Part shown: positions 23,644-64,000 of the stretch, in pieces
Layout of the letters: the number at the start of each line of letters is the position of its first letter
How positions within the stretch are numbered: position 1 is the first letter of the stretch
Source of the DNA: Thermoplasmata archaeon
GTDB taxonomy: Archaea; Thermoplasmatota; Thermoplasmata; UBA10834; DTMW01
Direction: 5' to 3'
Assembly (NCBI GenBank): GCA_038852105.1
Contig: JAWCKK010000005.1
Location: forward strand, 1,899 to 65,898
Length of the DNA stretch: 64,000 nucleotides
Made by a program: the position numbers and the translations under genes
The notes under the pieces: model-generated
Seen by the model: only the letters and a program-made list of their open reading frames with translations
What the model was told of the DNA's origin: nothing
Databases searched by the model: none

Positions 23644-24792
23644 CTATCGCAAACCTTCTGGGGGCCGAGGCCTATCGGCATAATCTCCCAGGGATTCGTC
23701 CAGTTGCTTCAGCAGATTCTTCTGCTCCCTCGTGAGCCTCTTGGGAATCGAGACGACGACCTTCGCCAGAATGTCGCCTCTGCCTCGGCCAGCCACATCG
23801 GGCATGCCCCGCCCGCGCAACCGAAAAATAGTTCCAGACTGAGTGCCAGGAGGTATAGTCAGCATCGCGTTCCCGTCCATTGTGGGTATTTTGACCTCGT
23901 CTCCGAGCGCCGCCTGGGAGATGGTCACAGGCACCTCGATGAGCAAATCGTTCCCGTCCCTCAGGAACTGATGATGGGGAGCAACATGCACGATGACATA
24001 CAGGTCTCCAGGAGGCCCCCCTTCTGGCCCGGGCTCTCCGGCACCTCTGACCCGAAGCCGCATGCCCGTATCGGCTCCTTTCGGAATAGAGATGACTATC
24101 CTGCTCGTCTCCTGTCTCTGACCAGTACCGCCGCAACTCCTGCAAGGATTTGTGTTCTTCCTGCCCGACCCCCTGCATTTCGGACACGTCGTCACGGTGA
24201 CATACTGGGCGAAGCCTCTTGTCTGGCTACGCCTTATTTGGCCGGACCCTCCGCAAGCATCGCAATTCTCGAGCTTCCCATCCGCAGAGCCGCTCCCCCG
24301 GCAATCGCGACAGGCCACCATGTGCGGCACCATTATCTCCTTCTCGGCACCGCGGTACGCGTCCTCGAGCGATATTTCCAGATCGTATCTCAGGGACTCT
24401 CCTTGAACCGGTCCTCGTCTGGTACGTCTGGAAGAACTGCCGAAGAACTGGTCGAATATGCTGCCGCCCAGGCCGAAGTCGGCGAACCCTCCGAATATGT
24501 CCTCCAGATCGGAGAAGTGCGTGAAATCCGTCCATTGGAACCCGCCTTCCCTGAACGTGGATTGAACGCCGGCCATCCCGTAGGTGTCGTACAACTTCCG
24601 TTTCTCGTCGTCGACCAGGACCTCGTATGCCTCCGAAAGCTCCTTGAATTTCTCCTCGGCCACCTTCCGGTCGAGCTTGGAAACGTCTGGATGATATTCC
24701 CTGGCAAGCCTGCGGTATGCCTTCTTGATATCGTCCTTGGTCGCGTTTCTCGATACGCCCAGGACTTCGTAGTAATCGCGCTTCTCGGGCAT
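23644..24792 (-). CDS. dnaJ: Chaperone DnaJ (Hsp40)
   Basis: J-domain with HPD (YHPDVSK), a G/F region and four CxxCxGxG zinc-finger repeats, 382 aa. Confidence 0.9.
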
Positions 24793-24860
24793 CTCAAAGC
24801 CCCTGTGCAGCCGGGAACATCCGAGTCGGGAGTGCCCTTTGCTGAGATTTCAATGTTTGC

Positions 24861-26759
24861 CTAGTCAACTATCCTGTAATTAGCGTCCACGACTCCGCCG
24901 TCTCCGGAGCCTCCGCCACCGCTATCCGCGCTGCCTCCAGGGGGCGGCGTGCCAGGACCGCTGGGGCCTGCGGCCGTCGGTCCTGCCTGGCCGTACGCCT
25001 TCTTCGCGGCCTCGTTAAGGAGGGATAGCAGTTCCTGCATGACTTCCTTCGTCTTCACGAGATCCTCGGTCGCAAGCACCTCGCGCAGCTGCTTCGCCTT
25101 GTCGAGTATCTTGTTCTTCAGCTCATCCCCGATTTTCGCCGCGAGCTCCTCGGCCGTCTTCTCCGCCTGGTACGAGAGAGACTCCGCCTGGTTCTTCAGC
25201 TCGGCAGCATCACGTCGCTTCTTGTCCTGCTCAGCGAATTCCTGAGCCTGCTTGATTGCCTTGTCAATCTCTTCCTTAGAGAGCTTCGTAGCAGCGGTTA
25301 TCACAATGGACTGCTGCTTTCCCGTGGCGAGGTCTTTCGCGGTCACGTTGAGTATGCCGTTCGCGTCTATGTCGAATGTGACCTCGATTTGCGGTATGCC
25401 GCGCGGCGCCGGCGGTATTCCGACAAGGTGGAACCTGCCTAGGGAGGTGTTGTCAGCTGCCATCGGTCTCTCTCCCTGGAGGACGTGAATCTCTACCCCG
25501 GTCTGATTGTCGGCCGCCGTGGTGAATATCTCCGATTTCCTGGTCGGGATTGTCGTGTTCCTATCGATCAGTTTTGTGAATACTCCGCCGAGGGTTTCGA
25601 CACCGAGGGTGAGAGGGGTCACATCCAGCAACAGGATGTCCTTCATCTCACCGGCAATCACGGCGCCCTGAATCGCTGCTCCTATTGCGACGCATTCCAT
25701 CGGGTCGACGCCTCGGACAATCTTGTTCCCGAGATGCTTCTCGACGAACTTCTGCACGATCGGCATCCTGGTCGGTCCGCCGACGAGTATAATCTTATCG
25801 ATGTCGCTTGCAGAAAGCTTCGCGTCACGGAGCGCGTTGTCAATCGATATCTTGCACTTCTCGACTATCGGCCCCACTAGCTCTTCGAGCTTGGCCCTCG
25901 TCAGCTTCATCGTCAGATGCTTCGGGCCGTTCTGGTCCGCCGTGATATACGGCAGGTTTATCTCGGTCTCGATTGTCGACGAAAGCTCGACCTTCGCCTT
26001 TTCCGCTGCCTCTCTTATTCGCTGCATTGCCATCTTGTCTTTCGTCAGGTCAAACCCTTGCTCGGCCTTGAACTGCTTCACTATGTGATCGATTATCGCG
26101 TTGTCCATGTCGGTCCCGCCGAGCTGCGTGTCGCCGCTCGTCGAGATCACTTCGAAGACGCCTTCGCCAAACTCCATTATGGTGACATCCAAGGTCCCGC
26201 CGCCGAAGTCGAACACGAGAATCTTCTGCTCCTTTTCCGATTTGTCAATCCCGTATGCCAGCGCTGCGGCGGTCGGCTCATTGATGATCCTGACGACCTC
26301 CAGGCCGGCGATTGTTCCGGCGTCCTTTGTTGCCTGTCTCTGATTGTCGTTGAAATACGCGGGGACGGTTATGACGGCCTTCTCTATCTTCGTCCCGAGA
26401 TAGGCTTCGGAATCCCTCTTTATCTTTTGGAGAATCATCGCCGAAATCTGTTGCGGGGTGTACTCCTTACCCCTGATATTCACCTTGTAATCAGTGCCCA
26501 TCTTCCTTTTGATTGCCATTACCGTTCCTTCCGGGTTGGATACGGCCTGTCTTCTGGCAGGCTCTCCCACGAGCACCTGGCCGTCTTTCGTGAACGCGAC
26601 ATACGATGGGAAAGCCTTTCCACCCAGCGTGGTCCCCTCCGCGCTCGGGATTATGACGGGCTTTCCGTTTTCTACAACGGCGGCCGCAGAGTTGCTCGTC
26701 CCCAAATCGATACCAATAATCTTCGCCATGATTTTCACACTCCTATTCATCCGTGTCAA
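24861..26759 (-). CDS. dnaK: Chaperone DnaK (Hsp70)
   Basis: [25 protein letters not shown], the EKAKVELSS linker and a GGxP-rich C-tail, 632 aa. Confidence 0.95.
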
Positions 26760-27366
26760 TATACCCTTGATCGTTCAAATTGAGCTTCTGAGTATCCTTG
26801 ATGGTAGGTGCTTCCTTGCCCTCCTCCCGATGGCAAACAACCACTCGCGCAGGGCGAATCACCTTGTTCCCGATCTTGTAGCCTTTCTGGAGGCATTCTA
26901 CTATATCTCCTTCCTGTTTTCCGGGCTGGTCGACCTTCGACATCGCCTCGTGCTCGAACGGATCCAGCTTGCAGTCCGTGGTTATCTCCACGACGCCCTC
27001 CTTCTTGAGGATATCTTTCAACTGCTTGTGCATCATCTCGAGCGCGTCCGCAAGAGGTTTCTCGTCTGGCCCTTTCGAGTTCGCGATTGCTCTCTCGAAA
27101 TCGTCCAATAGGCCCAGGAGCTCCCTGATTATCCTCTCGGTTGCCAGGGCGCAATATTCCTCCCTTTCTTTTGCCATCCTTTTCTTGTAGTTATCGAAAT
27201 CCGCCTGGAGCCTCTTCAGCCTGTCAAGATATTCCTCGTTCTTCTTTTCGAGGTCGGAAATCCTCTTCTCGTAATCAGATTCCGAGCCTTCGGACTCGGT
27301 GCGAGGCTGGGCAGACGCCGAATCGGTCCTTCCCCCAGAATCACCTTCTTCCATCTCGCGCTTCAT
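26743..27366 (-). CDS. grpE: Nucleotide exchange factor GrpE
   Basis: Coiled-coil N-region and a GrpE C-terminal beta domain ([16 protein letters not shown]). I set the start at the internal Met (MKREMEE) to avoid a roughly 100-nt overlap with the thermosome gene. It overlaps the dnaK start by 17 nt. Confidence 0.8.
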
Positions 27367-27439
27367 GTCTGCTGCCCTCCCCTTGACAGACCAATAATCA
27401 ATCTGGAAAGGGTTTGGAAGGGGTTTTGAGCCGTGAGGC

Positions 27440-29113
27440 TCAGAACTCCTCGTCCATTCCGCCGCCGGACGAACCTCCGCCTGGAGGCGTTCCGCCCTTG
27501 CCGCCCGGACCGCCAGCTCCGCCGCCCTTCGCAGCGATGACATCGTCGATCCTCAGGATCATGACCGCCGCGTCGGTCGCGGAGTTGATCGCCTGCTTGC
27601 CCACTCGTATCGGCTCGAGAACCTTCTCCTTCTCCATGTCCACGACTTTTCCGGTGAAGACGTTTATTCCAGCCCTCTTTTTGCCGTCCTTGTGGGCCTT
27701 CCTGAGCTCAATCAGCACATCGATCGGATCGAGCCCGGCGTTCTCCGCCAGTGTCGTCGGGATTATCTCCATAGCGTCCGCGAAAGCATCTATCGCAATC
27801 TGCTCCCTGCCTCCCACTGACGCTGCATATTCCCTGAGCCGCAGAGCGATTTCTGTTGCCGTCGACCCTCCGCCCGTCACCAGCATACCGTCCTCCAGGG
27901 CCAATCCGACGACGCTTATCGCATCGTCGAGCGAGCGCTCGATTTCGTCGACGACATGCTCGGTGCCGCCACGTATTAGGACGCTAACTGCCTTCGGGTT
28001 CTTGCAGCCAGTGACGAATGTCATCTGGTCTCCGCCTATCTTCTTCTCCTCGACCAGGGCCGCGCTCCCGAGGTCCGATTCCTTCAGGTCGTCGAGCTTT
28101 GTGACGATGGTCGCGCCCGTCGCCTTGCTCAGCTTCTCCATATCCGACTTCTTCACCCTGCGGACGGCGTATATGCCCTCTTTCGCCAGGTAGTGCTGGG
28201 CGAGGTCGTCGATGCCCTTCTGGCAGAACGCGACGTTCGCGCCCGACTTCTTGATGATGTCGACCATGCGCTTCAGCATCTTCTCCTCTTCCGCAAGGAA
28301 TGCCTGGAGCTGGGTCGGATCGGTTATCTCGATCTTCGCGTCTATTTCGGTCTTCTTGACCTCAAGTGCGGAATCTATCAGGGCTATCTTCGCCTTCTCG
28401 ACTTTCTTCGGCATGCCGCTGTGCACGACCTCCTTATCGACGATGATGCCCTCTATCAGCTGCGTGTCCTCCATCGAGGCGCCCTGCTTCTTTACTATCT
28501 GTATATTGTCCTGGTCGACCTCGAATTTGCCGTCCTTCTTTTCCGCGACGGCAAGAACAGCCCTGACGGCAATATCTGCCAGGTGCTCTCTCGATGCGCT
28601 CACGCTCTTGCTTATCATCGCAGTCATTGCGATGTCCTTGAGCTTGTTCTTGTCATCCGGGGTTATTTTGATAGCAATGTCTGTGAGAATCTCCTGCGCC
28701 TTCTGCGCGGCCAGCCTGAACCCGGATGCGATCACCGTCGGGTGAACGTTCTGCTCGATCAGAGCCTCTGCCTTCTTCAGGAGCTCGCCGGCCATGATGA
28801 CCGCCGTCGTCGTCCCATCTCCGCATTCCTCGTCCTGGGTCTTCGCGACCTCGACTATCATCTTCGCTGCGGGATGCTCGACATCAATCTCCTTCAATAT
28901 CGTCACGCCGTCGTTCGTTATGACGACGTCCCCCATGCTGTCAACGAGCATCTTGTCCATCCCGCGCGGACCGAGAGTGCTCCTGACGGCTTCACCTATT
29001 GCCTTCGCCGCCGTGATATTGCTGAACTGAGCGCCTCTTCCTTTCTCGCGCTTCGTTCCTTCCCTAAGTATCAAGACCGGTGTCTGTCCTATCATTTCAA
29101 ACCCTCCAAACAT
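27440..29113 (-). CDS. ths: Thermosome subunit (group II chaperonin)
   Basis: GPRGMDKML, the [11 protein letters not shown] apical region, the GGGATE-type motif ([12 protein letters not shown]) and a C-terminal GGxGG/MDEEF-like tail, 557 aa. Confidence 0.95.
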
Positions 29114-29368: not shown

Positions 29369-30790
29369 ATGGCAAGAGGTAGACTCAGCATTCTATTCTC
29401 CGAAGAAATCGAACGCATCCATTCAATTTCTATTAGGATATTGGAAGAAATAGGAATAGTTGTTAAAAGCGAAAATGTTGCGAAGATGCTGCTCGATGCG
29501 GGAGCTATCAGATCTCCTAATGGGAAACGGATATTGATACCGGAGAGGATGGTAAAGGCAGCTTTGGCTAGCGTGCCCAAGTCAATCCTTCTTGCCGGAC
29601 GGAATGGCGTCAAGGACATGACTATCCCTTCGAACATACTCTATGCCGCGACGGGCGGAGAGGGGGTCTACCTGAAGAACCTGGTCAAGGGAACCACTCG
29701 ACCGACGTCGATTCAGGACGTGAGAGATGTCTCAAGAATCGTGGAGAGTCTCCCCCAGATAGACTTCTTATGGGGACTTGTCGGTGCGTTAGATGTCCCT
29801 GATCATCTAAAGACCACGATGGAAACAAAGACAGCCATTCAATATTGCAGCAAGCACTGGCAAGGAGGCAGCTTGAGCGCAGAGGAGGCAAAGAGAGACA
29901 TCGACCTAGCGGCAATAGTGGTCGGCGGCCACAAGGAACTAGCAAGGAGGCCGATCATCTCTGCCGTTGAATGCCCCCTTTCACCGTTGACTTTCGAGAA
30001 GGGACTGGTCGAAGCCCAGGTTACGTATGCCAAGGCGGGCATACCGGTCGTCGCAATGGTGGCTAATATGGCTGGCCTCACATCTCCAATCACGCTATCT
30101 GGAACTGTGACGCAGACCAATGCCGAGAATCTTGCTAGCCTGGTGATATCCCAGACCGCGAAGCCAGGATCGCCTTGGATTTACAGTAGCGATTCCGTCC
30201 CTGCGGACTTGAGGACCGGCTCGATTGATTATGGAGCGTTCGAGGCACCATTGATGAGAGCCGCCGCGGGAGAGATGGGCAGGCATTACGGATTTCCAGT
30301 CATGTGCGCGGGCTTGGGCATCGAGGAGACCTCGATTAGCCTCAGCAGCATCCGAGAAGGGGTGCCGTTCATGCTAAACGAGGCTTTGGTGCAGTCCGAC
30401 CTCGGCTCAGGATTCGGCGGGATAGACCAGGCGGCGGGTGCCGCGTTCGAGCAGATAATCGTGGATGCGTGGATTTGGGAGATTGCACGAGAGATCGCGA
30501 GGGAGTTCGATACCGACGAGGACGCAATAGCGTTCGACACAATACGCGAAGCTTCGGAGGACATGAATTTCCTGACGAAGAAGCACACGATGGCACGGTT
30601 CAGAAAGGAATCGCTGGCAACATCGAAACCCTCTGCCGCAATCACAGGAAGACAGGAAAGTGCTGAGCGCGGAGCGGTCGTCAAGATGGCGCAGAAAGAG
30701 GTCGAGAAGATACTTTCGAAAGAGCCGAAGATGGTCGTCCCGAAGGATATCGCGAAAGAAATGGACGAATACGTCTCAAGGATAAGATGA
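29369..30790 (+). CDS. MttB-superfamily (trimethylamine methyltransferase-like) methyltransferase, uninterrupted (non-Pyl type)
   Basis: Homologous along its full length to the five paralogs at 57.2-64.0 kb (e.g. the conserved GGHKELARRPIISAVECPLSPLTFEKG, AGIPVV and HGNxFLTxxHT blocks). No in-frame stop. I set the start at the internal Met (MARGRL). Confidence 0.8.
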   Translation: MARGRLSILFSEEIERIHSISIRILEEIGIVVKSENVAKMLLDAGAIRSPNGKRILIPERMVKAALASVPKSILLAGRNGVKDMTIPSNILYAATGGEGVYLKNLVKGTTRPTSIQDVRDVSRIVESLPQIDFLWGLVGALDVPDHLKTTMETKTAIQYCSKHWQGGSLSAEEAKRDIDLAAIVVGGHKELARRPIISAVECPLSPLTFEKGLVEAQVTYAKAGIPVVAMVANMAGLTSPITLSGTVTQTNAENLASLVISQTAKPGSPWIYSSDSVPADLRTGSIDYGAFEAPLMRAAAGEMGRHYGFPVMCAGLGIEETSISLSSIREGVPFMLNEALVQSDLGSGFGGIDQAAGAAFEQIIVDAWIWEIAREIAREFDTDEDAIAFDTIREASEDMNFLTKKHTMARFRKESLATSKPSAAITGRQESAERGAVVKMAQKEVEKILSKEPKMVVPKDIAKEMDEYVSRIR

Positions 30791-44469: not shown

Positions 44470-45807
44470 ATGAAGCGGAGTCGGAATATGATTCCCGAGA
44501 AAATGCTGGACGCCCTTCGGATAAAGACGCTTGATGAGCTGTTCGACGACATCCCAAATAGCGCTCGAATAGATGGACTCAACCTACCTGATGGGATCGA
44601 GGACCTCGAACTCGAAAGAGATGTGACCCGAATACTGGCAAGAAATCGTACAATGGCTGATATTCCGATCTTTCTCGGAGGAGGAGTATACAGGCATTAT
44701 GTTCCCGCGGTCGTAGAAGAGATTCTATCGCGCTCCGAATTGTACACATCGTATACTCCGTATCAGGCGGAGGCGAGCCAAGGAATGCTTCAGGCGCTGT
44801 TCGAATATCAGAGCATGGTGGCCGAACTGACAGGATTGGAGGCGGTGAACTCGAGCATGTACGATTGGTCGACCGCTCTCGGTGAGGCCGCGCTGATGTG
44901 CCACAGAATCAAGCCCGGCAAGAGATTTCTCATCGGAAGGTCGGTTTCTCCTGAAAGAAAGGCGGTATTGAAGACATATTTGGCCGGCATCGGTGCAAGC
45001 ATTAAAGAAATACCGTTTGAGAAGGAATCTGGAAGAATCGATCTTCAAGGCCTGAAATCCGAAATTTCTGATGATGTCTTCGGACTGTATCTGGAAAATC
45101 CGAACTATTTTGGGGTATTGGAAGAGGATGTCGACGAGGTCTCGCCTCTCATCCGAGATGTGCCACTGGTCATAGGGGCCAATCCGCTCTCACTCGCGAT
45201 TCTGAAACCCCCGTCAGAGTACGGGGCGGACATCGTCATAGGTGAAGGACATCATCTTGGGACTAATCCGAATTTCGGTGGGCCGCTCCTGGGAATATTT
45301 GCAACGAAAAAGGAGCACATACGAAAAATGCCTGGGAGAATAATAGGCATGACCGTCGACGCAACTGGGAAGACAGCTTATTGCATGACTCTGCAGACGA
45401 GAGAACAGCACATCAGAAGGGATAAGGCGACTTCGAACATATGCACGAACGAAGCGTTGATGGCTGTCGCGGCAGTCGCCTATCTCGCATCTATCGGGAA
45501 GAGAAAATTGGTGGAAATCGCCTCGGAAAATATCCGAAAGGCGAAAAAATTCGCGGATAGAATTTCATCTGTCAAAGGATTTCGGGCGCCACTGTTCCAG
45601 GCGAATCACTTCAACGAGTTCGTAATGAGGTCAGACACGGGCGCGGAAGAACTCTCGAAACGGCTGTTGTCCAAGGGTGTGCACGGTGGGATTTGTCTGA
45701 ACAAGGACTTTCCAGACCTCGGGGAAAGCATGCTTCTCGCGGTCTCGGAATTGCACTCTGACGAGGATTTCGATCTCTTCGTTTCGGCCTTGGAGGGAGA
45801 AAACTGA
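44470..45807 (+). CDS. gcvPA: Glycine dehydrogenase (decarboxylating) subunit 1, GcvPA
   Basis: N-terminal half of the P-protein with characteristic [11 protein letters not shown], 445 aa. Confidence 0.9.
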
Positions 45808-45836
45808 CCTACCGTCAAGCATCGTTTGACGAGCCA

Positions 45837-47276
45837 TTGCTATTCGAACTCGAAACAGAGACTTCGTGCAACGACGACATCCTGAAAGACACGCCTGTCC
45901 CGGATAAATTGAGAAGAAGCTGCCTTGGAATCCCAGACTTGCCCGAGAGGGAGGTCATGAAGCATTTCGTCAGGCTGAGCCAGATGAACTACTCCGTGGA
46001 CACGGGGTTCTATCCGCTCGGTTCCTGCACAATGAAATACAACCCGAAATTGAACGAGAAAATCGCGCGTCTACCTTCGGCGACATTGTTGCATCCCAAT
46101 CAGGACGAATCCACAGTGCAGGGAGCCCTCCAGATAATGTACGAGCTTGAGAAAATGCTCTGCGAGATCGGCGGCGTCGATGCGGTCACGTTGCAGCCTG
46201 CCGCTGGTGCACACGGGGAGTTCACTGGGATGCAACTCGTTAGGGCCTATCACGAGGACAGAGGCGAGTGCAGAAATGATATAATAGTTCCCGAAACTGC
46301 CCACGGAACGAACCCCGCAAGTGCCGCGATGGCAGGATTCGACGTAATAGAACTGCCTTCTAAGAATGGAAGGGTCGATTGCGAAGCGCTGAGGTCCGTT
46401 GTCGGCAAAAACACCGCGGCCATGATGCTGACCAACCCCAACACCCTGGGACTTTTCGAGAAGGATGTTCTACAGATTGCGGACATTTTGCATAATGCTG
46501 GTGCGCTACTGTACTATGATGGCGCGAACATGAATGCGATTCTTGGCAGGACGAACCCAGGGAGGATGAATTTCGATATCGTCCATTTCAACCTCCACAA
46601 GACTTTTTCAACCCCCCATGGCGGAGGCGGCCCAGGCGCCGGCCCGATCGGTGTCAAGAAATTCTTAGAACCCTACCTACCGGTGCCAAGAATCGTAAAA
46701 AAAGGCGATGCCTTCGGATTCGATTATGACCGCCCTAAATCCATAGGTAAGGTGAGGGCATATTACGGGAATTTCGGAGTCTTGCTCAGGGCGTATGTAT
46801 ATATACGGTCTATGGGAGGAAACGGCCTCCGAGAAGTATCGGGAAGGGCCGTTGCGAACTCGAACTACCTCAGGAAATTGCTCGAGACCAGGCTTGAACT
46901 GCCATATCCGGGAAAACGCATGCATGAGTTCGTCCTATCGGGTGACAGACTGAAGGAGAAGGGGATCAGGACATTAGACCTTGCGAAACGAATGTTGGAC
47001 TATGGTGTGCACGCGCCAACGATATATTTCCCGCTGATAGTTGGCGAGGCAATCATGATAGAGCCTACGGAGACGGAATCGATTCAGACTCTTGACAAGT
47101 TCGTGGGAATAATTGATAAGATACTCAGCGAGGATCCGGAGATTATCAAGGACGCACCGCACAACACATCGGTGCGCAGGATCGATGAAGTCAAAGCGGC
47201 AAGGGAGCTAATCCTGAGCTACAAGATGTTGCTCGAGAAGAGGCGGAACGAAAAGGGAGTCGGTCATAATTCCTAG
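45837..47276 (+). CDS. gcvPB: Glycine dehydrogenase (decarboxylating) subunit 2, GcvPB
   Basis: PLP-lysine region ([16 protein letters not shown]), 479 aa. Confidence 0.9.
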
Positions 47277-55145: not shown

Positions 55146-57014
55146 GTGCAGATGAACGAGAGGAGAAAAATTGAATCCGAACTTCTCGCCAGAGTATCTG
55201 GAGACCGGGCGAAGGCTTTCGTGACGGAACTTGCGGGTATCCGACACAGGATTCCGGGGTCTGACGAGGAGCGGGTCGCCGCCGAGAGAATCGCTGACGA
55301 GATGAGGAAACTGGGTCTTGAGGTAGTCATCGAAGAATTCGACGTCGTTTCCTGGGAGCACCATCCGGCGAAGCTGACGCTGTCGAACGGCAGCACGAAA
55401 TCGTTCGACGTGGAGTTCATGCCGTACTCGCCTCCTGTGCGACCGGACGGATCCAAGGGCAGATTGGCCCCGCTGAGGTTCGGTTTTCCGGCTGAATATT
55501 CCGTATTCGGCGATGAAGCCATCATACCAATCGTGGATTTCAATTACGATGCAGGCGCACACCTTGTGGAACTCGCTGCGGCAAGGTCGGGCAAGAACAT
55601 CATCGCCCTCGGAATAATCGCGCATATCGACCGTGCTTTTAGGATAGAGAGCACCCCGATGCTTGCCAAGCCGATATCCTTTCCGGTCTTTTCAATCAGG
55701 AAAGAAGATGGCGAGGAGATACGAAGGCTGTGCGCCGGCGGCGATATCGTGGCCGAGCTCGAAGGCGAATCGAAGATCATACCCGATGCGAAGTCGGAGA
55801 ACGTGATAGGCCGCATGAAAGGTTCTTCAAAGGGCAAACATCGAATCATAGTCTCGGCTCATCACGATGGATGGTTTGCGGGCGCCAACGACAATCTCTC
55901 GTCCGTGGCGAGCATTCTGGAGGTCGCTAGAGCGCTCTCGGGCTCGGAGCTACGGAGAGCCATAGATTTCATTTCGTTCGGCTCGGAGGAAGGAGGGACA
56001 GAAGGATATCAGTACTATCTTTGGGGCTCGAGGCAGTACGTGAAGAAGCATTCGCGCGAGATGAAGGACATTGCATGCATCCTCAACTGCGAACTCGCGG
56101 GCGCGACCAACAGGGAAGCGCTCATCATCGATTGCACCCCGGACATGATATCGTTCTACGAGGGATTGCTGGACAATTGCAAGAATCTGTTGTCCGAAAA
56201 CGGCTGGCTTCCGGAGTTCGGAATCGCCACGCCGACAGCCTCTCAGGCAGATCAGATGAATTTCTCTCTTGCCGGTGTCCCCAGCACCCTTTTCGCGTGG
56301 GCTTGGTACGACGAATACCACACGGATATCGACAAGCCGGAGATTCTGAAACCGAAGCTGCTAGCCACCTTCTCGAAGATGGTCCTTCTCTCGGCGCACG
56401 AGTTCGCGACACTCGAAAAGCTTCCGCTGAGCCTGACCAGATACGCAAGGATAATCCGCATGGGACACACCGGATTGACCTCTCACATAATGGGGGACTT
56501 ATGCAAGGAATCCGTTCCCGGCCTTGAGCATCTCAAAAGGGTATCGAGCGGATTGCTGGACTTCAATCAGGCTTTCGTCGCACTCGACTCATTATCCGTC
56601 GCTGCTGCTGATTTGGAAAGAAGACTTTCCGCCGCAGATGACGACGCGGTTGAAGATTTGAACTCAAAGCTGCTCGGAGCCTGCAATGTGCTCAACAGCG
56701 CATTGTGCCGTACCGGCGGGCTGATGGGCGAGGACCCGATGTTTCCGGGATATCTGGAGTACATCGAGGAGCTCAGGAAGATGAGCGAAGCAAAGGACAA
56801 GATACGAGGCATCGCGGGATCGGATATTCCAACCGAGATATTGTCCGAATTCGTTCCGATACAGACCCCGGAGGTCTCGTTCAGGGAATTCGAAATGCAT
56901 GACGAGATATCGGCTCTCTCGAGAAGGCTCGAAAGAGCTAGGGTAATGCTACAGACCGAGTTGGACCGCATCACGCAGACAATCAACTTGGCCGCCCGCC
57001 ATATCAGCGGGTGA
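55146..57014 (+). CDS. M28-family aminopeptidase with PA domain
   Basis: ENVIGRMKGSSKGKHRIIVSAHHDGW...GANDNLSSVA (M28 zinc ligands H/D, and the second D in GANDN), EEGG (FGSEEGGTEG). 622 aa with a C-terminal extension. Confidence 0.75.
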   Translation: MQMNERRKIESELLARVSGDRAKAFVTELAGIRHRIPGSDEERVAAERIADEMRKLGLEVVIEEFDVVSWEHHPAKLTLSNGSTKSFDVEFMPYSPPVRPDGSKGRLAPLRFGFPAEYSVFGDEAIIPIVDFNYDAGAHLVELAAARSGKNIIALGIIAHIDRAFRIESTPMLAKPISFPVFSIRKEDGEEIRRLCAGGDIVAELEGESKIIPDAKSENVIGRMKGSSKGKHRIIVSAHHDGWFAGANDNLSSVASILEVARALSGSELRRAIDFISFGSEEGGTEGYQYYLWGSRQYVKKHSREMKDIACILNCELAGATNREALIIDCTPDMISFYEGLLDNCKNLLSENGWLPEFGIATPTASQADQMNFSLAGVPSTLFAWAWYDEYHTDIDKPEILKPKLLATFSKMVLLSAHEFATLEKLPLSLTRYARIIRMGHTGLTSHIMGDLCKESVPGLEHLKRVSSGLLDFNQAFVALDSLSVAAADLERRLSAADDDAVEDLNSKLLGACNVLNSALCRTGGLMGEDPMFPGYLEYIEELRKMSEAKDKIRGIAGSDIPTEILSEFVPIQTPEVSFREFEMHDEISALSRRLERARVMLQTELDRITQTINLAARHISG

Positions 57015-57220: not shown

Positions 57221-58645
57221 ATGGCGAAGACGATACTGAGGTTCTTGGAGAAGGACGAAGAGGAACTGATACACGCGCAGAGCATCAAGGTGCTGGAGGA
57301 GCTCGGAGTGATGATACACAGCGACCAGGTGCTCGATATGCTCGGCGCGAAAGGCGCGATAATAGACAAGAAAAAAAAGATAGCCAGGCTGCCAGAGAGC
57401 CTCGTTCTCGAATCACTGAAAAAAGCACCTAAAGAGTTCGTGCTTTGTGGAAGGGATCCGAAGAAGGATGTGGCTCTTCCTGCCAGGGAGTTTCCGTACA
57501 TATCGACCAATGGACTTTCAATATACATGACCGACCTTGAGACCGGCGAGAAGCGTCCAACGACCAGGAAGGATCTCGCGATGTTCGCGAGACTGGCGGA
57601 TTCATTGGATGCCGTCAGTTTCTTCTGGCCACAGGTGACCGCATCGGAGGTCCCGGAGATGGCTCATAATGTGCACGAGCTCTGGACGTCGCTGCAGAAC
57701 ACCGTCAAGCATGTCCAAGGAGATTCCGTCAACGCGGAGGACGCGCGGATGCAGATAAGGCTCGCGGCTCTTGTCGCGGGCGGAGAGAAAGAGCTCCGGA
57801 GACGGCCGATATTCTCTGTGACCGACTGTCCGATAGCGCCTCTGTCGTTCGAGAAGGGCGCCGTAGAGGCGCAGGTCGAGTTCGCCAGAGCAGGAATACC
57901 GATATCCTCGATGTCTATGTCACTCTCTGGCATGTCGTCGCCGGTGACCATCGCCGGGACTATCGTAAACGCGAACGTCGAGAACCTCGCGAGCATAACC
58001 ATCACGCAGACTGCAAACCCCGGAGCACCTCACCTGTACGCCTCGGAGTCGACCCCGATCGATATGAGCTCGGGGATGATCAACTACAAGGCTAACGAAT
58101 GCCCGATGATTGCATCGGCGCTCGCGCAGATGGCAAAAAGATACAGATTGCCATGCGTCGTGGGCCAGTGGGGCGCGGACGGAGATGAACCCGGACTGCT
58201 CGCATCGTTCAACGAGCTCGCAACAATCGCGATGACGATGCTCAGCGGTACAGACTGCTGCTCCGGGATGGGAGGTCTGGAATCGGCGAAGGGTGGCTCG
58301 CTGGAGCAGATGGTGATAGACGCATATTTGTGGGAGAACTTCAAGCCGATACTTCGGAACATGACGATCAACGAGGAGATGATGGCTTTCGATGTCATGA
58401 AGCAGGTAGGGCACGGGAACTCGTACCTGAGCCATCCGCATACCGCGAAGTTCCTCAGGAAGGAGCTCTTCTTCCCGGACAAGAAAAAGTTGGCCTGGGA
58501 GGCAACGCTATCGACGAAAATGGTCGGAGAGGCTCGGGAAATTGCAAAAAAGACCCTGAGGGATCACCGCGTAGAGCCGATAGACAGGGACATCATCAAG
58601 GAAGGGGATGAGATGATCCGCGAGTTCGAGAGGAGATTGCGATAA
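57221..58645 (+). CDS. MttB-superfamily methyltransferase paralog 2 (uninterrupted)
   Basis: 474 aa. Conserved blocks shared with the other paralogs (LLDxxEExLIHxxSIxxLExxGV, GGxxELRRRPIFS, FEKGAVEAQVEFAxAGIP, HGNSYLSHPHTAKF). No in-frame TAG. Confidence 0.85.
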   Translation: MAKTILRFLEKDEEELIHAQSIKVLEELGVMIHSDQVLDMLGAKGAIIDKKKKIARLPESLVLESLKKAPKEFVLCGRDPKKDVALPAREFPYISTNGLSIYMTDLETGEKRPTTRKDLAMFARLADSLDAVSFFWPQVTASEVPEMAHNVHELWTSLQNTVKHVQGDSVNAEDARMQIRLAALVAGGEKELRRRPIFSVTDCPIAPLSFEKGAVEAQVEFARAGIPISSMSMSLSGMSSPVTIAGTIVNANVENLASITITQTANPGAPHLYASESTPIDMSSGMINYKANECPMIASALAQMAKRYRLPCVVGQWGADGDEPGLLASFNELATIAMTMLSGTDCCSGMGGLESAKGGSLEQMVIDAYLWENFKPILRNMTINEEMMAFDVMKQVGHGNSYLSHPHTAKFLRKELFFPDKKKLAWEATLSTKMVGEAREIAKKTLRDHRVEPIDRDIIKEGDEMIREFERRLR

Positions 58646-58688
58646 TGTCGCGATAAATATCCATGATTTGAAGGAAAGGAAGGTGGGG

Positions 58689-60119
58689 ATGTTGGCAAAA
58701 GCTAGGTTGAAATTGTTGGACAAGTCGGAAGAGGACCTGATACACGCATCGAGCATCGAGACGCTCGAAAAAATCGGCGTCCTGGTGAGAAGCCCCACGG
58801 TGCTGAGGATGCTCGGCAACGCGGGCGCGAAGATCGATGAGAGATCGATGATTGCGAAGATACCCGAAGGGATGGTCAACGAGGCGATCAAGAAAGCTCC
58901 GAAGAGCTTCGTCCTGTGCTCGCGCGACGGAAAGCACGACCTGAGGCTCCCCGCGGATCCGTTCCCATACGTCGGCTCGAACGGCATCGGCACATATATG
59001 ACCGACTTCAAAACGGGGAAGAAAAGGGAAACCACTCGAAAAGACATCGCGGACTTCGCGAGGCTGGCGGACGCGTTGACGGGGACAGATTTCTTCTGGT
59101 CGAACGTGACGGCCTACGACGTCCCCGAGAGGACGCACATGGTGCACGCGCTCTGGGTATCGCTCCAGAACTGCACGAAGAGCTACGGTACGCTCACGCT
59201 GAGCGCAGAGGACGCCAGGGCGCAGGTGGAACTCGCGTCGCTCATAGTAGGCGGGAAAGATGAGCTGCGCAAGAGGCCCATCTTCCACTCGCTCTGCTGC
59301 GTCATCGCCCCCCTCTCGTTCGAGAAGGGAGCGATCGAAGGCCAAGTGGAGTTCGCGAAGGCAGGCATACCTGTCATATCGATGTCGATGTCCCTCTGCG
59401 GGATGTCCGCTCCTGTCACATTGGCGGGAACTGTCACAAACGCGAACACCGAGAATCTCGCGAGTCTCGTGATAACCCAGACAGCGGCCCCAGGAGCCCC
59501 TCACATATACTGCTCAGAATCGGAGCCGGCGAGCATGGTCACCGGGAACATAGTATACGAGGCCCCGGAGGCCCCGCTGATCGCGGCGGCGGCCGCTCAG
59601 ATGGCTCACAGGTACAACCTGCCTACCTTTACGGGCAGCTGGGGAGCGAACGGCGAGGTGCCAGGCGTGCCACTCTCGTTCTGCGAGCTGTCGGCAATCG
59701 CGCTGACGATGCTCACGGGCACGGACATGGCAGCGGGCTCTGGCGGGCTCGAAGAGGCGAAAGGCGCCTCGCTCGAACAGCTGGTCATAGATTCATACCT
59801 ATGGGAGAACTATAGAGCTTTCCTCAGGAAGTTCGAGGTCTCCGAGAAGACGATAGCTCTGGACGTCGTGAGGGAAGTGGGACACGGGAATTCCTTCCTT
59901 ACGCACCCACACACTGCCAGGAATTTCAAGAAGGAGCTCTTCTTCTGGGACAAGGAGAAATCGAAGTTCGAGGCGACGAGATCGACGGCAATGGTGCCGG
60001 AGGCGAAGAAGATAGCGAGCAAGATATTGAAAGAGCACAAGCCGGAACCGATAGATCCGAAGATCGTCGAGAAGGGAAACAAGATAATCGCCGCTCTCGA
60101 TAAAGAATTATCAACCTGA
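58689..60119 (+). CDS. MttB-superfamily methyltransferase paralog 3 (uninterrupted)
   Basis: As above. Start set at MLAKARLKLLDK, after a GGAAGGTGG Shine-Dalgarno-like element. Confidence 0.85.
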   Translation: MLAKARLKLLDKSEEDLIHASSIETLEKIGVLVRSPTVLRMLGNAGAKIDERSMIAKIPEGMVNEAIKKAPKSFVLCSRDGKHDLRLPADPFPYVGSNGIGTYMTDFKTGKKRETTRKDIADFARLADALTGTDFFWSNVTAYDVPERTHMVHALWVSLQNCTKSYGTLTLSAEDARAQVELASLIVGGKDELRKRPIFHSLCCVIAPLSFEKGAIEGQVEFAKAGIPVISMSMSLCGMSAPVTLAGTVTNANTENLASLVITQTAAPGAPHIYCSESEPASMVTGNIVYEAPEAPLIAAAAAQMAHRYNLPTFTGSWGANGEVPGVPLSFCELSAIALTMLTGTDMAAGSGGLEEAKGASLEQLVIDSYLWENYRAFLRKFEVSEKTIALDVVREVGHGNSFLTHPHTARNFKKELFFWDKEKSKFEATRSTAMVPEAKKIASKILKEHKPEPIDPKIVEKGNKIIAALDKELST

Positions 60120-60248
60120 TCGGCCAGCTGAAAGAATCCATCGAGGGGTTTCACAAACGCCATGCGCGGTTCCGACGGGGAAACGCTTAAGAAATGCTCG
60201 TCGTTAGGGGGAACCGGACTCAGCGGACGCTGAGGGGAGGTGTTGAGC

Positions 60249-61682
60249 ATGGCAGTGGCAAAACTGAAGTTTCTCGATAAGAGCGAAGAGGAGACGATTC
60301 ATCAGCAGAGCATAGAATGCCTTGAGACAATCGGAGTCAAGATAAAGAGCGAGCGGGTTCTCAAGATGCTGGGGGATGCGGGCGCGAACATCGACACAAA
60401 AAGCATGGTCGCGAAAATCCCCGAGAGCATGGTGAAGGAAGCTCTGAGGACAGCGCCGAAGGAGATGACGCTCTATGCCAGGGACCCGAAGCATAACCTC
60501 AAGATTCCTGTATCGTCGTTTCCGTACACTGCCACGACCGGCCTCGGCGTCTACATAGTTGATCTCAAGACGGGCAAGCCCAGGTCTTCTACGAGGAAGG
60601 ACATCGCGGATTTCATCAAGGTCGCGGACGCGCTGAGCGGGATAGACTATGTCTGGACATCGCTTACCGCGACGGACGTGCCTCAGGTGACACATGGCCT
60701 GCACGAGCTCTGGACGGCCTTCCAGAACACGACCAAGCACGTGCAAGGAGTCGAGATACTCAACGCGGAGGACGCGAAGAGACAGATTGAGCTCGGCGCT
60801 CTTGTCGCAGGGGGCATGGAAGAGCTTCGGAAGAAGCCTTGCTTCTCCGTCATACACTGCTCCATCGCGCCTCTCATGTTCGAACACGAAGCGGTAGAGG
60901 CGATGGTCGAGTTCAACAAGGCAGGCGTTCCGATCTGCACGATGACGATGTCGCTCTCCGGAGGCACGGCGCCGGTGACGATGGCCGGAACCCTGGTCAA
61001 CGGCAACTCCGAGAACCTCGCGAGCTTCGTCATAAGCCAGGTGGCAAACAAGGGCGCCCCCGTGATATACTGCTCCTCATCGGCACCCGTCAGCATGAAG
61101 ACGGGAATAATCGATTACATGACGGTCAATCAGCCCCTCATCGCTACGGGGTTCGCGCAGATGGCGAAGAGGTACGGGATGCCCTGTATGGTCGGCGACT
61201 GGGGCGTGAACGACAAGCCGGAACCGGGAATCCCGCACACCTTCAGCGAGGTCATGGGCGTCTCGCTCAGCACGATGTCGGGAACGGACCTTCAATCGGG
61301 CATCGGCGGGCTGGACGCGGTGAAGGGCGCCGCGCTCGAACAGGAAGTGATTGAAGCCTATCTCTGGGAGAACGTGAGGAAGTTCATGACGCCCGTCCTA
61401 ATCAATAAGGAAACCTGCGCGCTCGACGTAATCAAGGCCGTTGGACATGGCAACACCTTCCTGTCGCACATACACACAGCGAAGAACTTCAAGAGGGAGA
61501 TAATCCTGAGGGACCCTGACAAGGGAAGGTTCGAGGCAACCCTGTCTAACAAGATGGTCCCAGAGGCGAAGCAGATAGCCGAGAAGATCTTGAAAGAGCA
61601 CAGGCCAGTACCTCTCGATCCTTCCATCGTGAAGAAGGGCGACGAGATAATCAGGAACTGGGAGAAGAAGCTGGGCGTGTGA
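60249..61682 (+). CDS. MttB-superfamily methyltransferase paralog 4 (uninterrupted)
   Basis: Starts MAVAKLKFLDKSEEE, with the GAGGTGTTGAGC ATG GCA initiation context shared by paralogs 5 and 6. Confidence 0.85.
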   Translation: MAVAKLKFLDKSEEETIHQQSIECLETIGVKIKSERVLKMLGDAGANIDTKSMVAKIPESMVKEALRTAPKEMTLYARDPKHNLKIPVSSFPYTATTGLGVYIVDLKTGKPRSSTRKDIADFIKVADALSGIDYVWTSLTATDVPQVTHGLHELWTAFQNTTKHVQGVEILNAEDAKRQIELGALVAGGMEELRKKPCFSVIHCSIAPLMFEHEAVEAMVEFNKAGVPICTMTMSLSGGTAPVTMAGTLVNGNSENLASFVISQVANKGAPVIYCSSSAPVSMKTGIIDYMTVNQPLIATGFAQMAKRYGMPCMVGDWGVNDKPEPGIPHTFSEVMGVSLSTMSGTDLQSGIGGLDAVKGAALEQEVIEAYLWENVRKFMTPVLINKETCALDVIKAVGHGNTFLSHIHTAKNFKREIILRDPDKGRFEATLSNKMVPEAKQIAEKILKEHRPVPLDPSIVKKGDEIIRNWEKKLGV

Positions 61683-61810
61683 ATCCAAGCCCCTTGAAAA
61701 ACCCTTTCGATTGTTTCTGATTTGTTCCGAATTCGAAAGAATATTAAGCCTTCGAACTTTAGGGGTAGTTTGCTAAGGCGCTGTTGCGGCCTAGCGGGAG
61801 GTAGTTGAGC

Positions 61811-63247
61811 ATGGCAGTCGCGCGACTGAAGTTCTTAGATAAGGAAGAGGAAGATCTCGTTCATGAATACTCGCTGAAGAGCCTGGCCGAGATAGGCGTC
61901 AAGATAAGAAGCGAATCGGTCCTCGGGATGCTGGGAAAAGCAGGGGCAACCATCGACCGAAAGGAGATGATCGCGCGAATACCGGAGGACATGGTCACAG
62001 AGGCTCTCAGGAAAGCGCCCAAGGAGTTCAAGCTCTATTCTCGCGACGGAAAGCATGACCTCCAGCTTCCTGTCGAGGCGATGCCTTACATTTGCACGAA
62101 CGGCCTGGGAATATACATCAGAGACATTCATTCGGGCAAGAACAGGCCATCGACCAAGAAGGATATCGCGGACGTGGTAAGATTGGGCGATGCTCTGGAA
62201 CAGATGGACTATCTCTGGACGACTCTGACGGCCACCGAGGTGCCCCAGGTCGCGCACGGCCTGCACGAACTCTGGACAGCGTTCCAGAACACTTCGAAGC
62301 ACGTCCAGGGGGTCTCCGTGGGAAGCGCGGAAGAGTGCAGGGCGCAGATAAGGCTCGCCTCGTTGATAGCCGGGGACGAGGAGAAGCTCAGAAAGAGACC
62401 GATATTCTCGGTGATATGCTGCTCTATTGCCCCGCTCTCCTTCGAGAAGGGCGCAGTCGAGGGACAGGTCGAGTTGAACAAGGCAGGGATACCCGTCGTA
62501 TCCATGTCGATGTCCCTGGGCGGAATGTCGGCGCCAGTCACGCTAGGAGGGACGATACTGAACGCGAACACCGAGAACCTCGCGAGCCTCGTCATCTCGC
62601 AGACCGCGAATCCGGGGACGCCGCACATCTACAGTTCGGAATCGACCCCCGTGAACATGAGCACAGGGAACATCTACTACGAGAGCCCGGAATCGCCTCT
62701 CATTAGCGCGGCGACCTCTCAGATGGCGAAAAGATACGGATTGCCCTGCCTGACGGGAGCCTGGGGCTCGGGAGCTGACGACCCTGAACCGGGGCTATTG
62801 AGCCCGTTTTCCGAGCTCATGAGCCTGGTACTCTGCTCCATGACGGGGACCGATCTTGCAGCTGGCGCAGGATCGATAGATGTCGCGAAGGGCGTCTCTC
62901 TCGAGCAGGTGGTTATCGACGCGTATCTCTGGGAGAACCAGCGCGCGTTCATGAGGAAGTTCAAGATAGATGCGGAATCGTTCGCCCTGGACGTGGTCAA
63001 GCAGGTGGGGCATGGCAATAGCTTCTTGACGCACCCGCACACTGCGAAGCACTTCAGGTCGGAGTTGTACTTCCGAGACAAGAAGAAGCTCGCCTGGGAG
63101 CAGACGCTGTCGAACAAGAGCGTCCCTGAGGCGAGGGAGATAGCGCTCAAGCTGCTCAAAGAACACAGGCCTCTGCCATTGGATGCATCGGTCATCAGAG
63201 AAGGGGACAAGCTGATAGAGGAATTCGAGAGACGTCACGCGACATGA
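61811..63247 (+). CDS. MttB-superfamily methyltransferase paralog 5 (uninterrupted)
   Basis: Starts MAVARLKFLDKEEED and is about 60% identical to paralog 4 by eye. Confidence 0.85.
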   Translation: MAVARLKFLDKEEEDLVHEYSLKSLAEIGVKIRSESVLGMLGKAGATIDRKEMIARIPEDMVTEALRKAPKEFKLYSRDGKHDLQLPVEAMPYICTNGLGIYIRDIHSGKNRPSTKKDIADVVRLGDALEQMDYLWTTLTATEVPQVAHGLHELWTAFQNTSKHVQGVSVGSAEECRAQIRLASLIAGDEEKLRKRPIFSVICCSIAPLSFEKGAVEGQVELNKAGIPVVSMSMSLGGMSAPVTLGGTILNANTENLASLVISQTANPGTPHIYSSESTPVNMSTGNIYYESPESPLISAATSQMAKRYGLPCLTGAWGSGADDPEPGLLSPFSELMSLVLCSMTGTDLAAGAGSIDVAKGVSLEQVVIDAYLWENQRAFMRKFKIDAESFALDVVKQVGHGNSFLTHPHTAKHFRSELYFRDKKKLAWEQTLSNKSVPEAREIALKLLKEHRPLPLDASVIREGDKLIEEFERRHAT

Positions 63248-63453
63248 ACTATTTCGGACAATATTCCCGATTAGTTCGACTGATTTTCACCCCTTTTAGA
63301 AACCTTTTCACAGAACATTATGCTCAGGGTGTAATATCTTCTCCCGATTATTCGAGCCAGCATCCAGAACGGCTGGTTCCCCTCGAAACAATAATAATGA
63401 ATGCGCACTTTGGGAGTGGCGTCGGCAATGGCTGATGGGAGGTCTGTTGAATC

Positions 63454-64000
63454 ATGGCAGTCGCGCGTCTGAAGTTCCTCGACAAGAGCGAGGAAGATCT
63501 GGTGCACAGTCTGAGCCTGAAGAATCTGAGGGAAACCGGGGTCAAGATCCATAGCCAATCGGTTTTGAAGATGCTCCGAGATGCGGGAGCAGATGTGGAT
63601 CTGAAGACCGAGATAGCAAAGATACCCGAGGAGATGGTGAACGAAGCCTTGCGGAAAGCCCCGAAGAGCTTCGTCATAGGGGCGCGCGATGCGAAGAAGG
63701 ACATCAGGCTCCCCGCGGAAAGCTATCCGTATGTCTCGCTCGGAGGAGTCACCGCTTGGATAGAGGACTACGAGACGAAGAAGCACCGGGATGCGACGAG
63801 AAAGGACCTCGCGACCATCGCGAGGCTCGGAGACGCGTTGAACCCCGTTGACGCGATTTGGCCGCTTGTGACGGTCAGAGATGTCCCGCCTCACACGGGA
63901 TTCGCGTACGAGCTCTGGACATGCCTTCAGAACACGGTCAAACCGATTCATGGCTCGGCGGGTTCCGGCACGATAGGCGTCGAGGACGCGCGGGTTCAGA
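63454..64000 (+). CDS. MttB-superfamily methyltransferase paralog 6, 3'-truncated by the window end
   Basis: Hand-translated MAVARLKFLDKSEEDLVHSLSLKNLRETGVKIHSQSVLKMLRDAGADVDLKTEIAKIPEEMVNEALRKAPKSFVIGARDAKKDIRLPAESYPYV..., open to the end of the window. Not in the ORF track because no stop is reached. The start coordinate may be off by 1. Confidence 0.75.
   Translation, partial: MAVARLKFLDKSEEDLVHSLSLKNLRETGVKIHSQSVLKMLRDAGADVDLKTEIAKIPEEMVNEALRKAPKSFVIGARDAKKDIRLPAESYPYVSLGGVTAWIEDYETKKHRDATRKDLATIARLGDALNPVDAIWPLVTVRDVPPHTGFAYELWTCLQNTVKPIHGSAGSGTIGVEDARVQ

Follow-up and report, generated by a model that had tools for sequence, protein, structure and literature searches.

What do five MttB-family methyltransferase genes do side by side in an archaeal genome, and with which partners do they work? 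The question is raised by positions 57221–64000 of a 64,000-nucleotide stretch of contig JAWCKK010000005.1 from a Thermoplasmata archaeon; the whole analysed stretch is called the window in this report. In this region, four complete MttB-family open reading frames (ORFs) are arranged head-to-tail on the + strand, followed by a fifth of which the initial 182 codons are visible, and a solitary sixth copy is located at 29.4 kb. With moderate confidence, the six genes are interpreted as a set of pyrrolysine-free (Pyl-free), corrinoid-dependent substrate:corrinoid methyltransferases (MT1) with different, probably non-acidic substrates and with a corrinoid protein that is encoded elsewhere.

The array and the solitary copy

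The tandem genes are numbered copies 1–5 in their order and the solitary gene is referred to as copy 6.

57221–58645, +: copy 1, 474 amino acids, stop codon TAA; PF06253 E 1.5e-67, profile positions 31–487 of 500; pocket motif LPCVVGQWGAD
58692–60119, +: copy 2, 475 amino acids from the TTG called by NCBI; PF06253 E 7.7e-70; motif GSWGAN
60249–61682, +: copy 3, 477 amino acids, ATG start; PF06253 E 1e-62; motif GDWGVND
61811–63247, +: copy 4, 478 amino acids; PF06253 E 1.4e-63; motif GAWGSGADD
63454–64000 (cut by the window end), +: copy 5, 182 of 482 codons visible, ATG start; PF06253 E 2.6e-18 on the visible part
29369–30790, +: copy 6; PF06253 E 2.3e-66; TIGR02369 310 bits; motif CAGLGIEE

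The PF06253 scores are in the range of 212–236 bits (66 bits for the truncated copy 5) with a cutoff of 25 and a coverage of about 28–494 of 500 positions. The complete tandem copies match nearly the whole profile with E values of 1e-62 to 1e-70. In copy 2 an upstream TTG at 58668 is likewise open; TTG 58692 is the NCBI gene call in the closely related locus L001. The ORF of copy 6 is open from 29333, but translation probably begins at ATG 29369; the resulting protein has 473 amino acids, as in its homologs. Copy 6 sits between the thermosome gene and an SPFH-domain gene.

Locus L001 is contig JAWCPC010000005.1 of the metagenome-assembled genome (MAG) GCA_038870435.1. It differs from the window by 14 mismatches in 12,190 shared bases (99.9% identical) and runs 6.3 kb past the window end. 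In L001 copy 5 is intact (482 amino acids, L001 11644–13092) and ends at the window-equivalent position 64902; its motif is TGIVGID, without Trp. The same MAG encodes a protein (P0001) with 100% identity to copy 4, which is annotated as 'trimethylamine methyltransferase family protein [Thermoplasmata archaeon]'. Past copy 5, L001 contains a small ribbon-helix-helix gene, followed by housekeeping genes on the opposite strand (PAC2, Nop10, eIF2-alpha, S27e and L44e). Thus, the array has exactly five members. The original prediction of six MttB-superfamily paralogs, five of them in tandem, is borne out by the PF06253 matches, with the completeness of copy 5 seen in L001 and not in the window.

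The ribbon-helix-helix gene directly follows copy 5 in all three array-carrying genomes (L001, L007 and L003), encodes an 82-residue RHH_1 protein that is 79–88% identical among them and is a candidate local regulator.

L001 13255–13503 (window-equivalent 65065–65313): RHH_1 gene
L007 9053–9295: RHH_1 gene
L003 13348–13587: RHH_1 gene

The repeat period of the array is 1471–1643 nt. The tandem copies are 58–64% identical in DNA and 51–60% identical in protein (copy 2 and copy 1, 58%), and copy 6 is 36–38% identical to copies 1–5. A tblastn search of the window with copies 1 and 6 as queries matched exactly these six genes and no additional MttB fragment or pseudogene. There is no internal stop codon in any copy. 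As originally predicted, none of the six is interrupted by an in-frame amber codon, and Gly occupies the position of Pyl334. TAG serves as an ordinary stop, which ends 11 of the 48 genes of the window, and no tRNA-Pyl is present in the 64 kb. Both observations fit a host that does not decode pyrrolysine.

Subfamilies and distribution

A genome scan with patterns from five copies, in which each GTDB species was represented by one genome, yielded 42 loci. With a single exception they belong to Thermoplasmata or 'Methanobacteriota' MAGs, including isolate UBA10834, RBG_13_57_23, RBG_19FT_COMBO_56_21 and Slate River bins. A protein search gave 1096 matches with E≤1e-30 among the scored candidates, and all source names in the top 120 are Thermoplasmata or other euryarchaeal. 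The clade is found almost only in Thermoplasmata MAGs (UBA10834/Gimiplasmatales and RBG-16-68-12 relatives). Most of the 40 non-redundant clade loci (34) hold a single copy; three hold two, L003 holds four, and five copies are present only in the window lineage (L001) and in L007.

In a tree built by neighbour joining, the window copies pair with their respective positional orthologs in L007, which has five copies, and in L003, which has four; each tandem copy is placed in a subfamily of its own alongside sequences of far more distant MAGs. The orthologs of each copy in other genomes are 75–88% identical and occur in the same gene order. Copy 6 branches as the sister of the entire clade, outside of which the two reference enzymes, Methanosarcina barkeri MttB and Desulfitobacterium hafniense MtgB, are placed. 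Copy 6 represents a further subfamily that is widespread in Thermoplasmata (best match 90% identity, 473 amino acids). To judge from this tree and the identities, the tandem copies are old paralogs, retained or brought together in one array, and did not arise by recent serial duplication.

In L003, the relative with 75% identity, the position of copy 2 (L003 6197–8398) is taken by an ABC ATPase gene and a 484-residue ORF without Pfam match, and four MttB genes are left. The only non-archaeal locus, L043 (CAZSGZ010000071.1), belongs to a 'Spirochaetales bacterium' MAG and contains six MttB-family ORFs or fragments. One of these clusters with the Thermoplasmata sequences at 49% identity; genes for SBP_bac_5, an aminotransferase and a saccharopine-dehydrogenase-like protein are nearby. 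This locus could be the result of horizontal transfer or a mis-binned contig.

Fold and pocket residues

An AlphaFold2 model of copy 1, computed from an alignment of the window sequences and search matches, has a predicted local distance difference test (pLDDT) value of 88 and a predicted template-modelling score (pTM) of 0.88. In Foldseek comparisons the template-modelling (TM) score is 0.86 to 7xcl (M. barkeri MttB), 0.83 to 9yce/2qne (D. hafniense MtgB) and 0.81 to 4yyc, whereas the next family, MtmB, reaches only 0.55. The modelled fold is a TIM barrel like that of the solved MttB and MtgB structures. With phmmer, copy 1 matches 7xcl with E 5.5e-63 and MtgB with E 3.3e-51. Copies 1–5 share about 30% identity with M. 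barkeri Pyl-MttB and 26–28% with D. hafniense MtgB, and the identity between these two reference proteins is 31%. For copy 6, the MtgB score is slightly higher than the MttB score. The sole NCBIfam match is TIGR02369, the Pyl-MttB equivalog, to which the full-length copies score 310–399 bits (copy 1, 399) with a cutoff of 525. Membership in the non-pyrrolysine MttB superfamily, as first proposed, agrees with the full-length PF06253 matches and with the fold matches (TM 0.86/0.83).

The alignment to characterised enzymes that the original prediction had called for was made with M. barkeri MttB and D. hafniense MtgB; for MtpB, MtcB, MtyB and MthB the published statement on the conservation of R312 (PMC13080624) was relied on. 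The copies share with Pyl-MttB (7XCL/7XCN, TIGR02369) the full-length TIM barrel, a similar length and domain order and the equivalents of Gly110 and Met249. Gly110, the cis-peptide of which contacts the corrin in MttB (PMC9842639), corresponds to the invariant G98, and Met249 corresponds to M233 in copies 1–5. The Pyl334 position, on the other hand, is Gly318 in copy 1, and this Gly is invariant in 32 aligned clade sequences. Tyr364 of Pyl-MttB, where the exchange Y364F cuts Vmax about 28-fold (PMC9842639), has Ser or Ala as its counterpart in each of the six copies. The copies furthermore differ from Pyl-MttB in having no in-frame UAG, TIGR02369 scores below the cutoff, no adjacent mttC and a host that uses TAG as a normal stop.

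The enzymes of the MtgB group (MtgB, MtpB, MtcB, MtyB and MthB of D. hafniense and Eubacterium limosum; 2QNE/9YCE) resemble the copies in being Pyl-free, in their fold (TM 0.83) and in the expected MT1 role (PMC13080624). According to mutagenesis and a liganded structure, MtgB binds glycine betaine by Y97 and F356 (cation-π) and by R312 and H348 (carboxylate). R312 is conserved in all characterised members, all of which have acidic quaternary-amine substrates (PMC13080624). In the copies all four substrate residues are replaced; Y97/R312/H348/F356 become N97/V313/G349/A356 in copy 1, as taken from the sequence alignment and not from a structure. The R312 position is V, F, M, L, M and M in copies 1–6, respectively, and V, L, M, F or Y in all 48 clade and neighbouring sequences, but never basic. 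The copies are also set apart from the MtgB group by the low identity, the separate branch and the lack of an adjacent corrinoid protein or second methyltransferase (MT2). The suggested kinship with betaine and carnitine demethylases fails at this level, and the clade is approximately equidistant from Pyl-MttB and MtgB. By residue signature the copies are neither MttB proper nor betaine-type enzymes.

Subfamilies 1–4 have the signature LP-x-x-x-G-x-W-G, in which a Trp precedes the Gly at the Pyl position. Subfamily 5 has V, L or M instead of Trp, plus D356 and W102, and copy 6 has AGLG at this motif. These pocket states are conserved within each subfamily across distant genomes. The Trp beside the Gly is a plausible cation-π element.

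Proposed function

The six intact Pyl-free proteins would be MT1 enzymes of a Thermoplasmata-specific clade of the MttB superfamily, and the tandem array would be a set of co-located methyltransferases with different substrate specificities. Different specificities are most likely because the tandem genes belong to five separate old subfamilies, each of which conserves a distinct set of pocket residues. Since neither the carboxylate-binding Arg nor pyrrolysine is present, the substrates are probably methylated compounds that carry no acidic group. The most plausible candidates would be methylamines that are already quaternary or are activated in another way, rather than free trimethylamine or compounds of the glycine betaine type. 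An MttC-like corrinoid protein, with its gene at another place in the genome, would accept the methyl group in its Co(I) form. A presumed MT2 would then move the methyl group to tetrahydrofolate-linked C1 metabolism, which would correspond to non-methanogenic methylotrophy. Both the corrinoid dependence of the six copies and the downstream route of the methyl group are presumed by homology.

Corrinoid protein and other partners

Several observations weigh against the proposed function. Pfam searches of nearly all ORFs of the window revealed no B12-binding protein, URO-D/MtaA, MtrH or pterin-binding MT2 and no RamA-type activase. The search of the flanking contig for a corrinoid protein and RamA, which had been recommended at the outset, covered the 6.3 kb downstream of the window in L001 and gave no corrinoid protein, MT2 or activase either. 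A cobalamin riboswitch is absent from the window, for which Rfam at gathering thresholds gives only a tRNA-Pro. Only 5 of the 40 related loci contain a B12-binding gene in the stretches examined, and its immediate neighbour there is a divergent MttB or an MtmB-like gene, not the clade member. The commonest neighbours of the clade, which are described in the next section, do not obviously fit a methyl-transfer pathway. Additionally, the substrate class is deduced from residues that are absent in a sequence alignment and not from a liganded structure.

The original prediction had already stated that no corrinoid protein or MT2 is in view. This is confirmed by Pfam, by the DxHxxG motif, which occurs in no ORF of the window, and by a tblastn search of the window with the lineage corrinoid protein, which gave nothing better than E 0.11. 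MT2 was found neither in the window nor in the corrinoid-gene neighbourhoods of the relatives examined.

A corrinoid protein is found with the clade in three complete genomes (CP070732, CP070736 and CP070748). These contain a co-directional cluster of EamA, a clade MttB with a GDWG motif, a divergent MttB, a B12-binding protein of 206–222 amino acids and a Pyl-free MtmB-family protein. The corrinoid protein family of the lineage is conserved at 70–90% identity. Candidates for the corrinoid gene of the window's own genome, P0218 and P0235, which came from a search with a relative's corrinoid protein, turned out to be from other assemblies. In CP070736 and CP070748, further clade members are located 185–480 kb away, with no corrinoid gene nearby (L025 and L039), which makes use of the corrinoid protein in trans plausible. 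A comparable situation exists in E. limosum, where, according to work of the Krzycki laboratory, MtqC and MtqA reportedly serve MtpB, MtcB and MtyB, so that several MT1 paralogs share one corrinoid protein. These paralogs likewise differ in specificity, and corrinoid protein and MT2 are not encoded beside each of them. The E. limosum system is bacterial, acts on acidic betaine substrates and has MtqA as MT2, whereas the paralogs described here stand in tandem.

In five loci the MttC-like corrinoid gene is always followed, 4–8 nt on, by an uninterrupted MtmB-family gene of about 460 codons with Met at the position of Pyl202 of M. barkeri MtmB.

L005 13208–15221: corrinoid gene and MtmB-like gene
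L006 13200–15234: corrinoid gene and MtmB-like gene
L049 9337–11375: corrinoid gene and MtmB-like gene
L053 1593–3636: corrinoid gene and MtmB-like gene
L055 10001–12056: corrinoid gene and MtmB-like gene

A Pyl-free MtmB homolog has recently been reported to be tied to methanogenesis from tetramethylammonium and choline (PMC13044021).

Neighbouring genes of the clade

The gene directly upstream of the array is co-directional and encodes a peptidase.

55146–57014, +: M28-family peptidase, 622 amino acids; PF04389 E 3.6e-26

The ortholog group of this peptidase is the most recurrent neighbour: in 13 of the 40 non-redundant loci it is represented no more than 10 kb from a clade gene. In the window/L001, L003, L007 and L035 the peptidase gene lies directly upstream, in the same orientation. 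Other recurrent neighbours are a saccharopine-dehydrogenase-like protein (9 loci), an ArsR regulator with a beta-propeller protein (8), a secreted PHP-like protein (8), a class-III aminotransferase (7; adjacent to the clade gene in 5), a C11 peptidase (7), Opp-type permeases (7) and SBP_bac_5 (4).

These neighbours form the basis of the main rival explanation, in which the clade takes part in the catabolism of peptides or amino acids and uses another acceptor or another chemistry. The proteins might, for example, act on methylated amino acids or polyamines freed by the peptidase, transfer the methyl group directly to folate or a thiol, or not be methyltransferases at all. The frequency of the M28 peptidase and its position directly upstream in four loci are in line with this, and so is the recurrence of C11 clostripain, the class-III aminotransferase, the saccharopine-dehydrogenase-like protein and SBP_bac_5 with permeases. 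The scarcity of nearby corrinoid genes (5 of 40 loci) and a lineage for which no MT2 gene is reported point in the same direction. However, all characterised members of the fold are corrinoid-dependent MT1 enzymes (PMC13080624, PMC9842639), the corrin-contacting Gly is invariant, and at least three complete genomes have a corrinoid protein gene next to clade members. Furthermore, the neighbour links are partly inherited synteny and amount to approximately three independent contexts, and peptidases are generally abundant in these archaea. This explanation is considered unlikely.

The PHP-like protein has about 400 residues, an N-terminal hydrophobic segment and the motif GDLHTHTGYSD...AVTDH, by which it resembles PHP-type metal phosphoesterases. 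It has no Pfam match at E≤1e-5. In most of the eight loci its gene is directly upstream of a divergent MttB and a clade MttB. The protein could release a methylated head-group.

L016 7082–8260: PHP-like protein
L018 2967–4208: PHP-like protein
L022 7094–8296: PHP-like protein
L041 7106–8317: PHP-like protein
L047 7056–8318: PHP-like protein
L017, L020 and L045: PHP-like protein

In L011 (5503 to about 12000) and L012 (3837 to about 10000), a clade MttB is followed by co-directional genes for SBP_bac_5 and two Opp/Dpp-like permeases with multiple transmembrane segments. The SBP_bac_5 family is confirmed by Pfam in L011; in L012 an unclustered ORF is found at that place. The arrangement looks like an operon that pairs an MttB enzyme with an importer.

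Betaine-type demethylation and glycine cleavage

The window also contains genes of the glycine cleavage system.

44470–47276: gcvPA and gcvPB

The second rival explanation makes use of these genes. It regards the copies as quaternary-amine demethylases of the MtgB/MtpB/MtcB/MtyB type, which feed dimethylglycine or glycine to the nearby glycine cleavage system. Every characterised non-Pyl member does use a quaternary amine (PMC13080624), gcvPA and gcvPB are 10 kb upstream of the array, and copy 6 is by score slightly closer to MtgB than to MttB. Yet none of the four residues that bind glycine betaine is kept in copy 1, the R312 position is never basic in the clade and its neighbours, and the identity to MtgB is just 26–28%.

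The location of the gcvP genes is as given in the original prediction, but their link to the array is only thematic. In the intervening 10 kb, a PAS histidine kinase, tmk, coaBC, a GHMP-kinase-like gene, HerA and the M28 peptidase are encoded on both strands. In L003, the closest syntenic relative, gcvP genes are absent from the 4.7 kb upstream of the array. As a synteny argument the glycine-cleavage linkage was rejected on both grounds. Altogether, betaine-type demethylation is quite unlikely.

Trimethylamine as substrate

Taken literally, the database names would make the copies true trimethylamine methyltransferases that work without pyrrolysine. M. barkeri MttB is indeed the best match in structure and sequence, TIGR02369 is the sole NCBIfam match, and the equivalents of Gly110 and Met249 are kept. 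Against this, Pyl334 is replaced by Gly and Tyr364 by Ser or Ala, and the TIGR02369 scores are well under the equivalog cutoff. Pyrrolysine is thought to be needed to turn trimethylamine into a quaternary, activated adduct (PMC9842639, PMC13080624), and five plus one old paralogs for a single substrate are hard to explain. Trimethylamine methyltransferase activity is very unlikely.

Start context and age of the copies

The near-identical translation-initiation context that had been described for three paralogs is confirmed for copies 3, 4 and 5. GGGAGGT is located at 60235–60241 (copy 3), 61796–61802 (copy 4) and 63437–63443 (copy 5), and ATGGCAGTxGC follows 7–10 nt later. By sliding nucleotide identity between copies 4 and 5, near-identity is confined to the Shine-Dalgarno site and the first ~8 codons; the remainder is 33–75% identical per 20-codon block. 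The same context is present at the orthologs in L007 and L003 and thus reflects a conserved N-terminus, MAVARLKFL, together with a Shine-Dalgarno site. Gene conversion as a sign of recent duplication was rejected because of this narrow extent and the sharing with orthologs elsewhere.

The serial duplication that the original prediction read from this context is contradicted by the tree, in which each copy has positional orthologs and an old subfamily. Recent duplication into redundant isoenzymes with a gene-dosage effect, to which the head-to-tail layout and the shared starts of copies 3–5 might point, is extremely unlikely given copies that are only 51–60% identical in protein and 58–64% in DNA, orthologs of 75–88% identity in the same order elsewhere, pocket residues that are subfamily-specific and conserved, and a start context found in L007 and L003 too.

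A hairpin, CUCAGC-GGAC-GCUGAG, is located at 60219–60234, immediately 5' of the Shine-Dalgarno site of copy 3, and similar stems precede that of the orthologs in L007 and L003. The intergenic regions of the array have fold z-scores of about 0 and are no more stable than shuffled sequences. The significance of the hairpin is unproven.

Genomic context in the window

By Pfam, the window ORFs are mostly housekeeping and regulatory. Archaeal marker genes are represented by the thermosome, PAN, GINS51, HerA, DUF2240 and archease. Along with the name of the NCBI record, the first four of these identify the host as a Thermoplasmata archaeon and not a bacterium; it is uncultured and probably no methanogen. 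Three other regions are listed for completeness.

11828–16348, -: ORF of 1506 codons, the only Pfam match of which is a C-terminal Prok-RING_1 finger
17537–18622, -: one ORF with the DNA-binding domain of O6-methylguanine-DNA methyltransferase and an Endonuclease V domain
23644–27543, -: bacterial-type DnaJ-DnaK-GrpE operon, adjoining the archaeal thermosome gene (27440–29113)

Relation to published work

The presence of Pyl-free mttB in these lineages is already published. Zinke et al. describe multiple Pyl-free mttB ORFs, phylogenetically distinct from methanogen MttB, in MAGs of the RBG-16 and UBA10834 orders; some of the MAGs have mttC or mtbC, none has mtaA, and the role of mttB is termed unclear (10.1101/2020.03.09.984617). 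Genes for mttB, mttC and mtmB, with no MT2 gene, are reported for UBA10834 and RBG-16-68-12 MAGs, for which methylotrophy has been suggested (10.1101/2020.03.09.984617; PMC11264602). On the same gene set, Rasmussen et al. propose methylotrophic acetogenesis for Ca. Gimiplasmatales, and mttB is present in 17% of the MAGs of this floodplain study (PMC11264602). The genes belong to the same clade as those described here, as the scan returns MAGs named there at 53–76% identity. These reports give gene presence and a separate tree position only and are not known to describe the five-gene array, the subfamilies or the pocket. The present analysis adds the five-gene array in a conserved frame from the M28 peptidase to the ribbon-helix-helix gene, the old subfamilies, the exclusion at residue level from both characterised types and the pattern of a corrinoid protein encoded in trans.

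Non-Pyl MttB homologs have reportedly also been proposed for methylotrophy in Brockarchaeia and Culexarchaeia. In Asgard archaea, Pyl-free MttB-like genes are proposed for non-methanogenic methylotrophy, with methyl transfer to tetrahydrofolate or tetrahydromethanopterin pathways (PMC11291895). Those genes are near mtrH, a corrinoid gene and gcvH, whereas the array has no nearby partner.

Significance

Pyl-free MttB homologs are among the most often annotated 'methylotrophy' genes in anoxic sediments. Only few have known substrates, and all of these are acidic quaternary amines. By residue signature, the Thermoplasmata clade fits neither known MttB type.

A more far-reaching interpretation, which is possible but doubtful, is that the clade is a third functional type of MttB, with neither pyrrolysine nor the carboxylate-binding Arg. 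An invariant Gly, in most cases next to a Trp (GxWG), would leave a cavity with a cation-π wall for non-acidic methylated amines, with five specificities in the array and with methyl harvesting coupled to detrital breakdown. Candidate substrates would be choline, tetramethylammonium and methylated polyamines or lysine derivatives. If this holds, the pairing with the M28 peptidase would couple the breakdown of detrital protein or lipid head-groups to methyl harvesting via a methylcorrinoid:folate methyltransferase, and elsewhere the aminotransferase, saccharopine-dehydrogenase-like and Opp-type transporter genes would join the same coupling.

The locus is useful but not surprising, and its significance would rise if the clade defines a new substrate class. 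The array is a compact test set, in which five old subfamilies that differ in their pocket residues are adjacent. Knowledge of the substrates and of the second methyltransferase would tell whether these abundant non-methanogenic relatives of the Methanomassiliicoccales compete with methanogens for methylated compounds.

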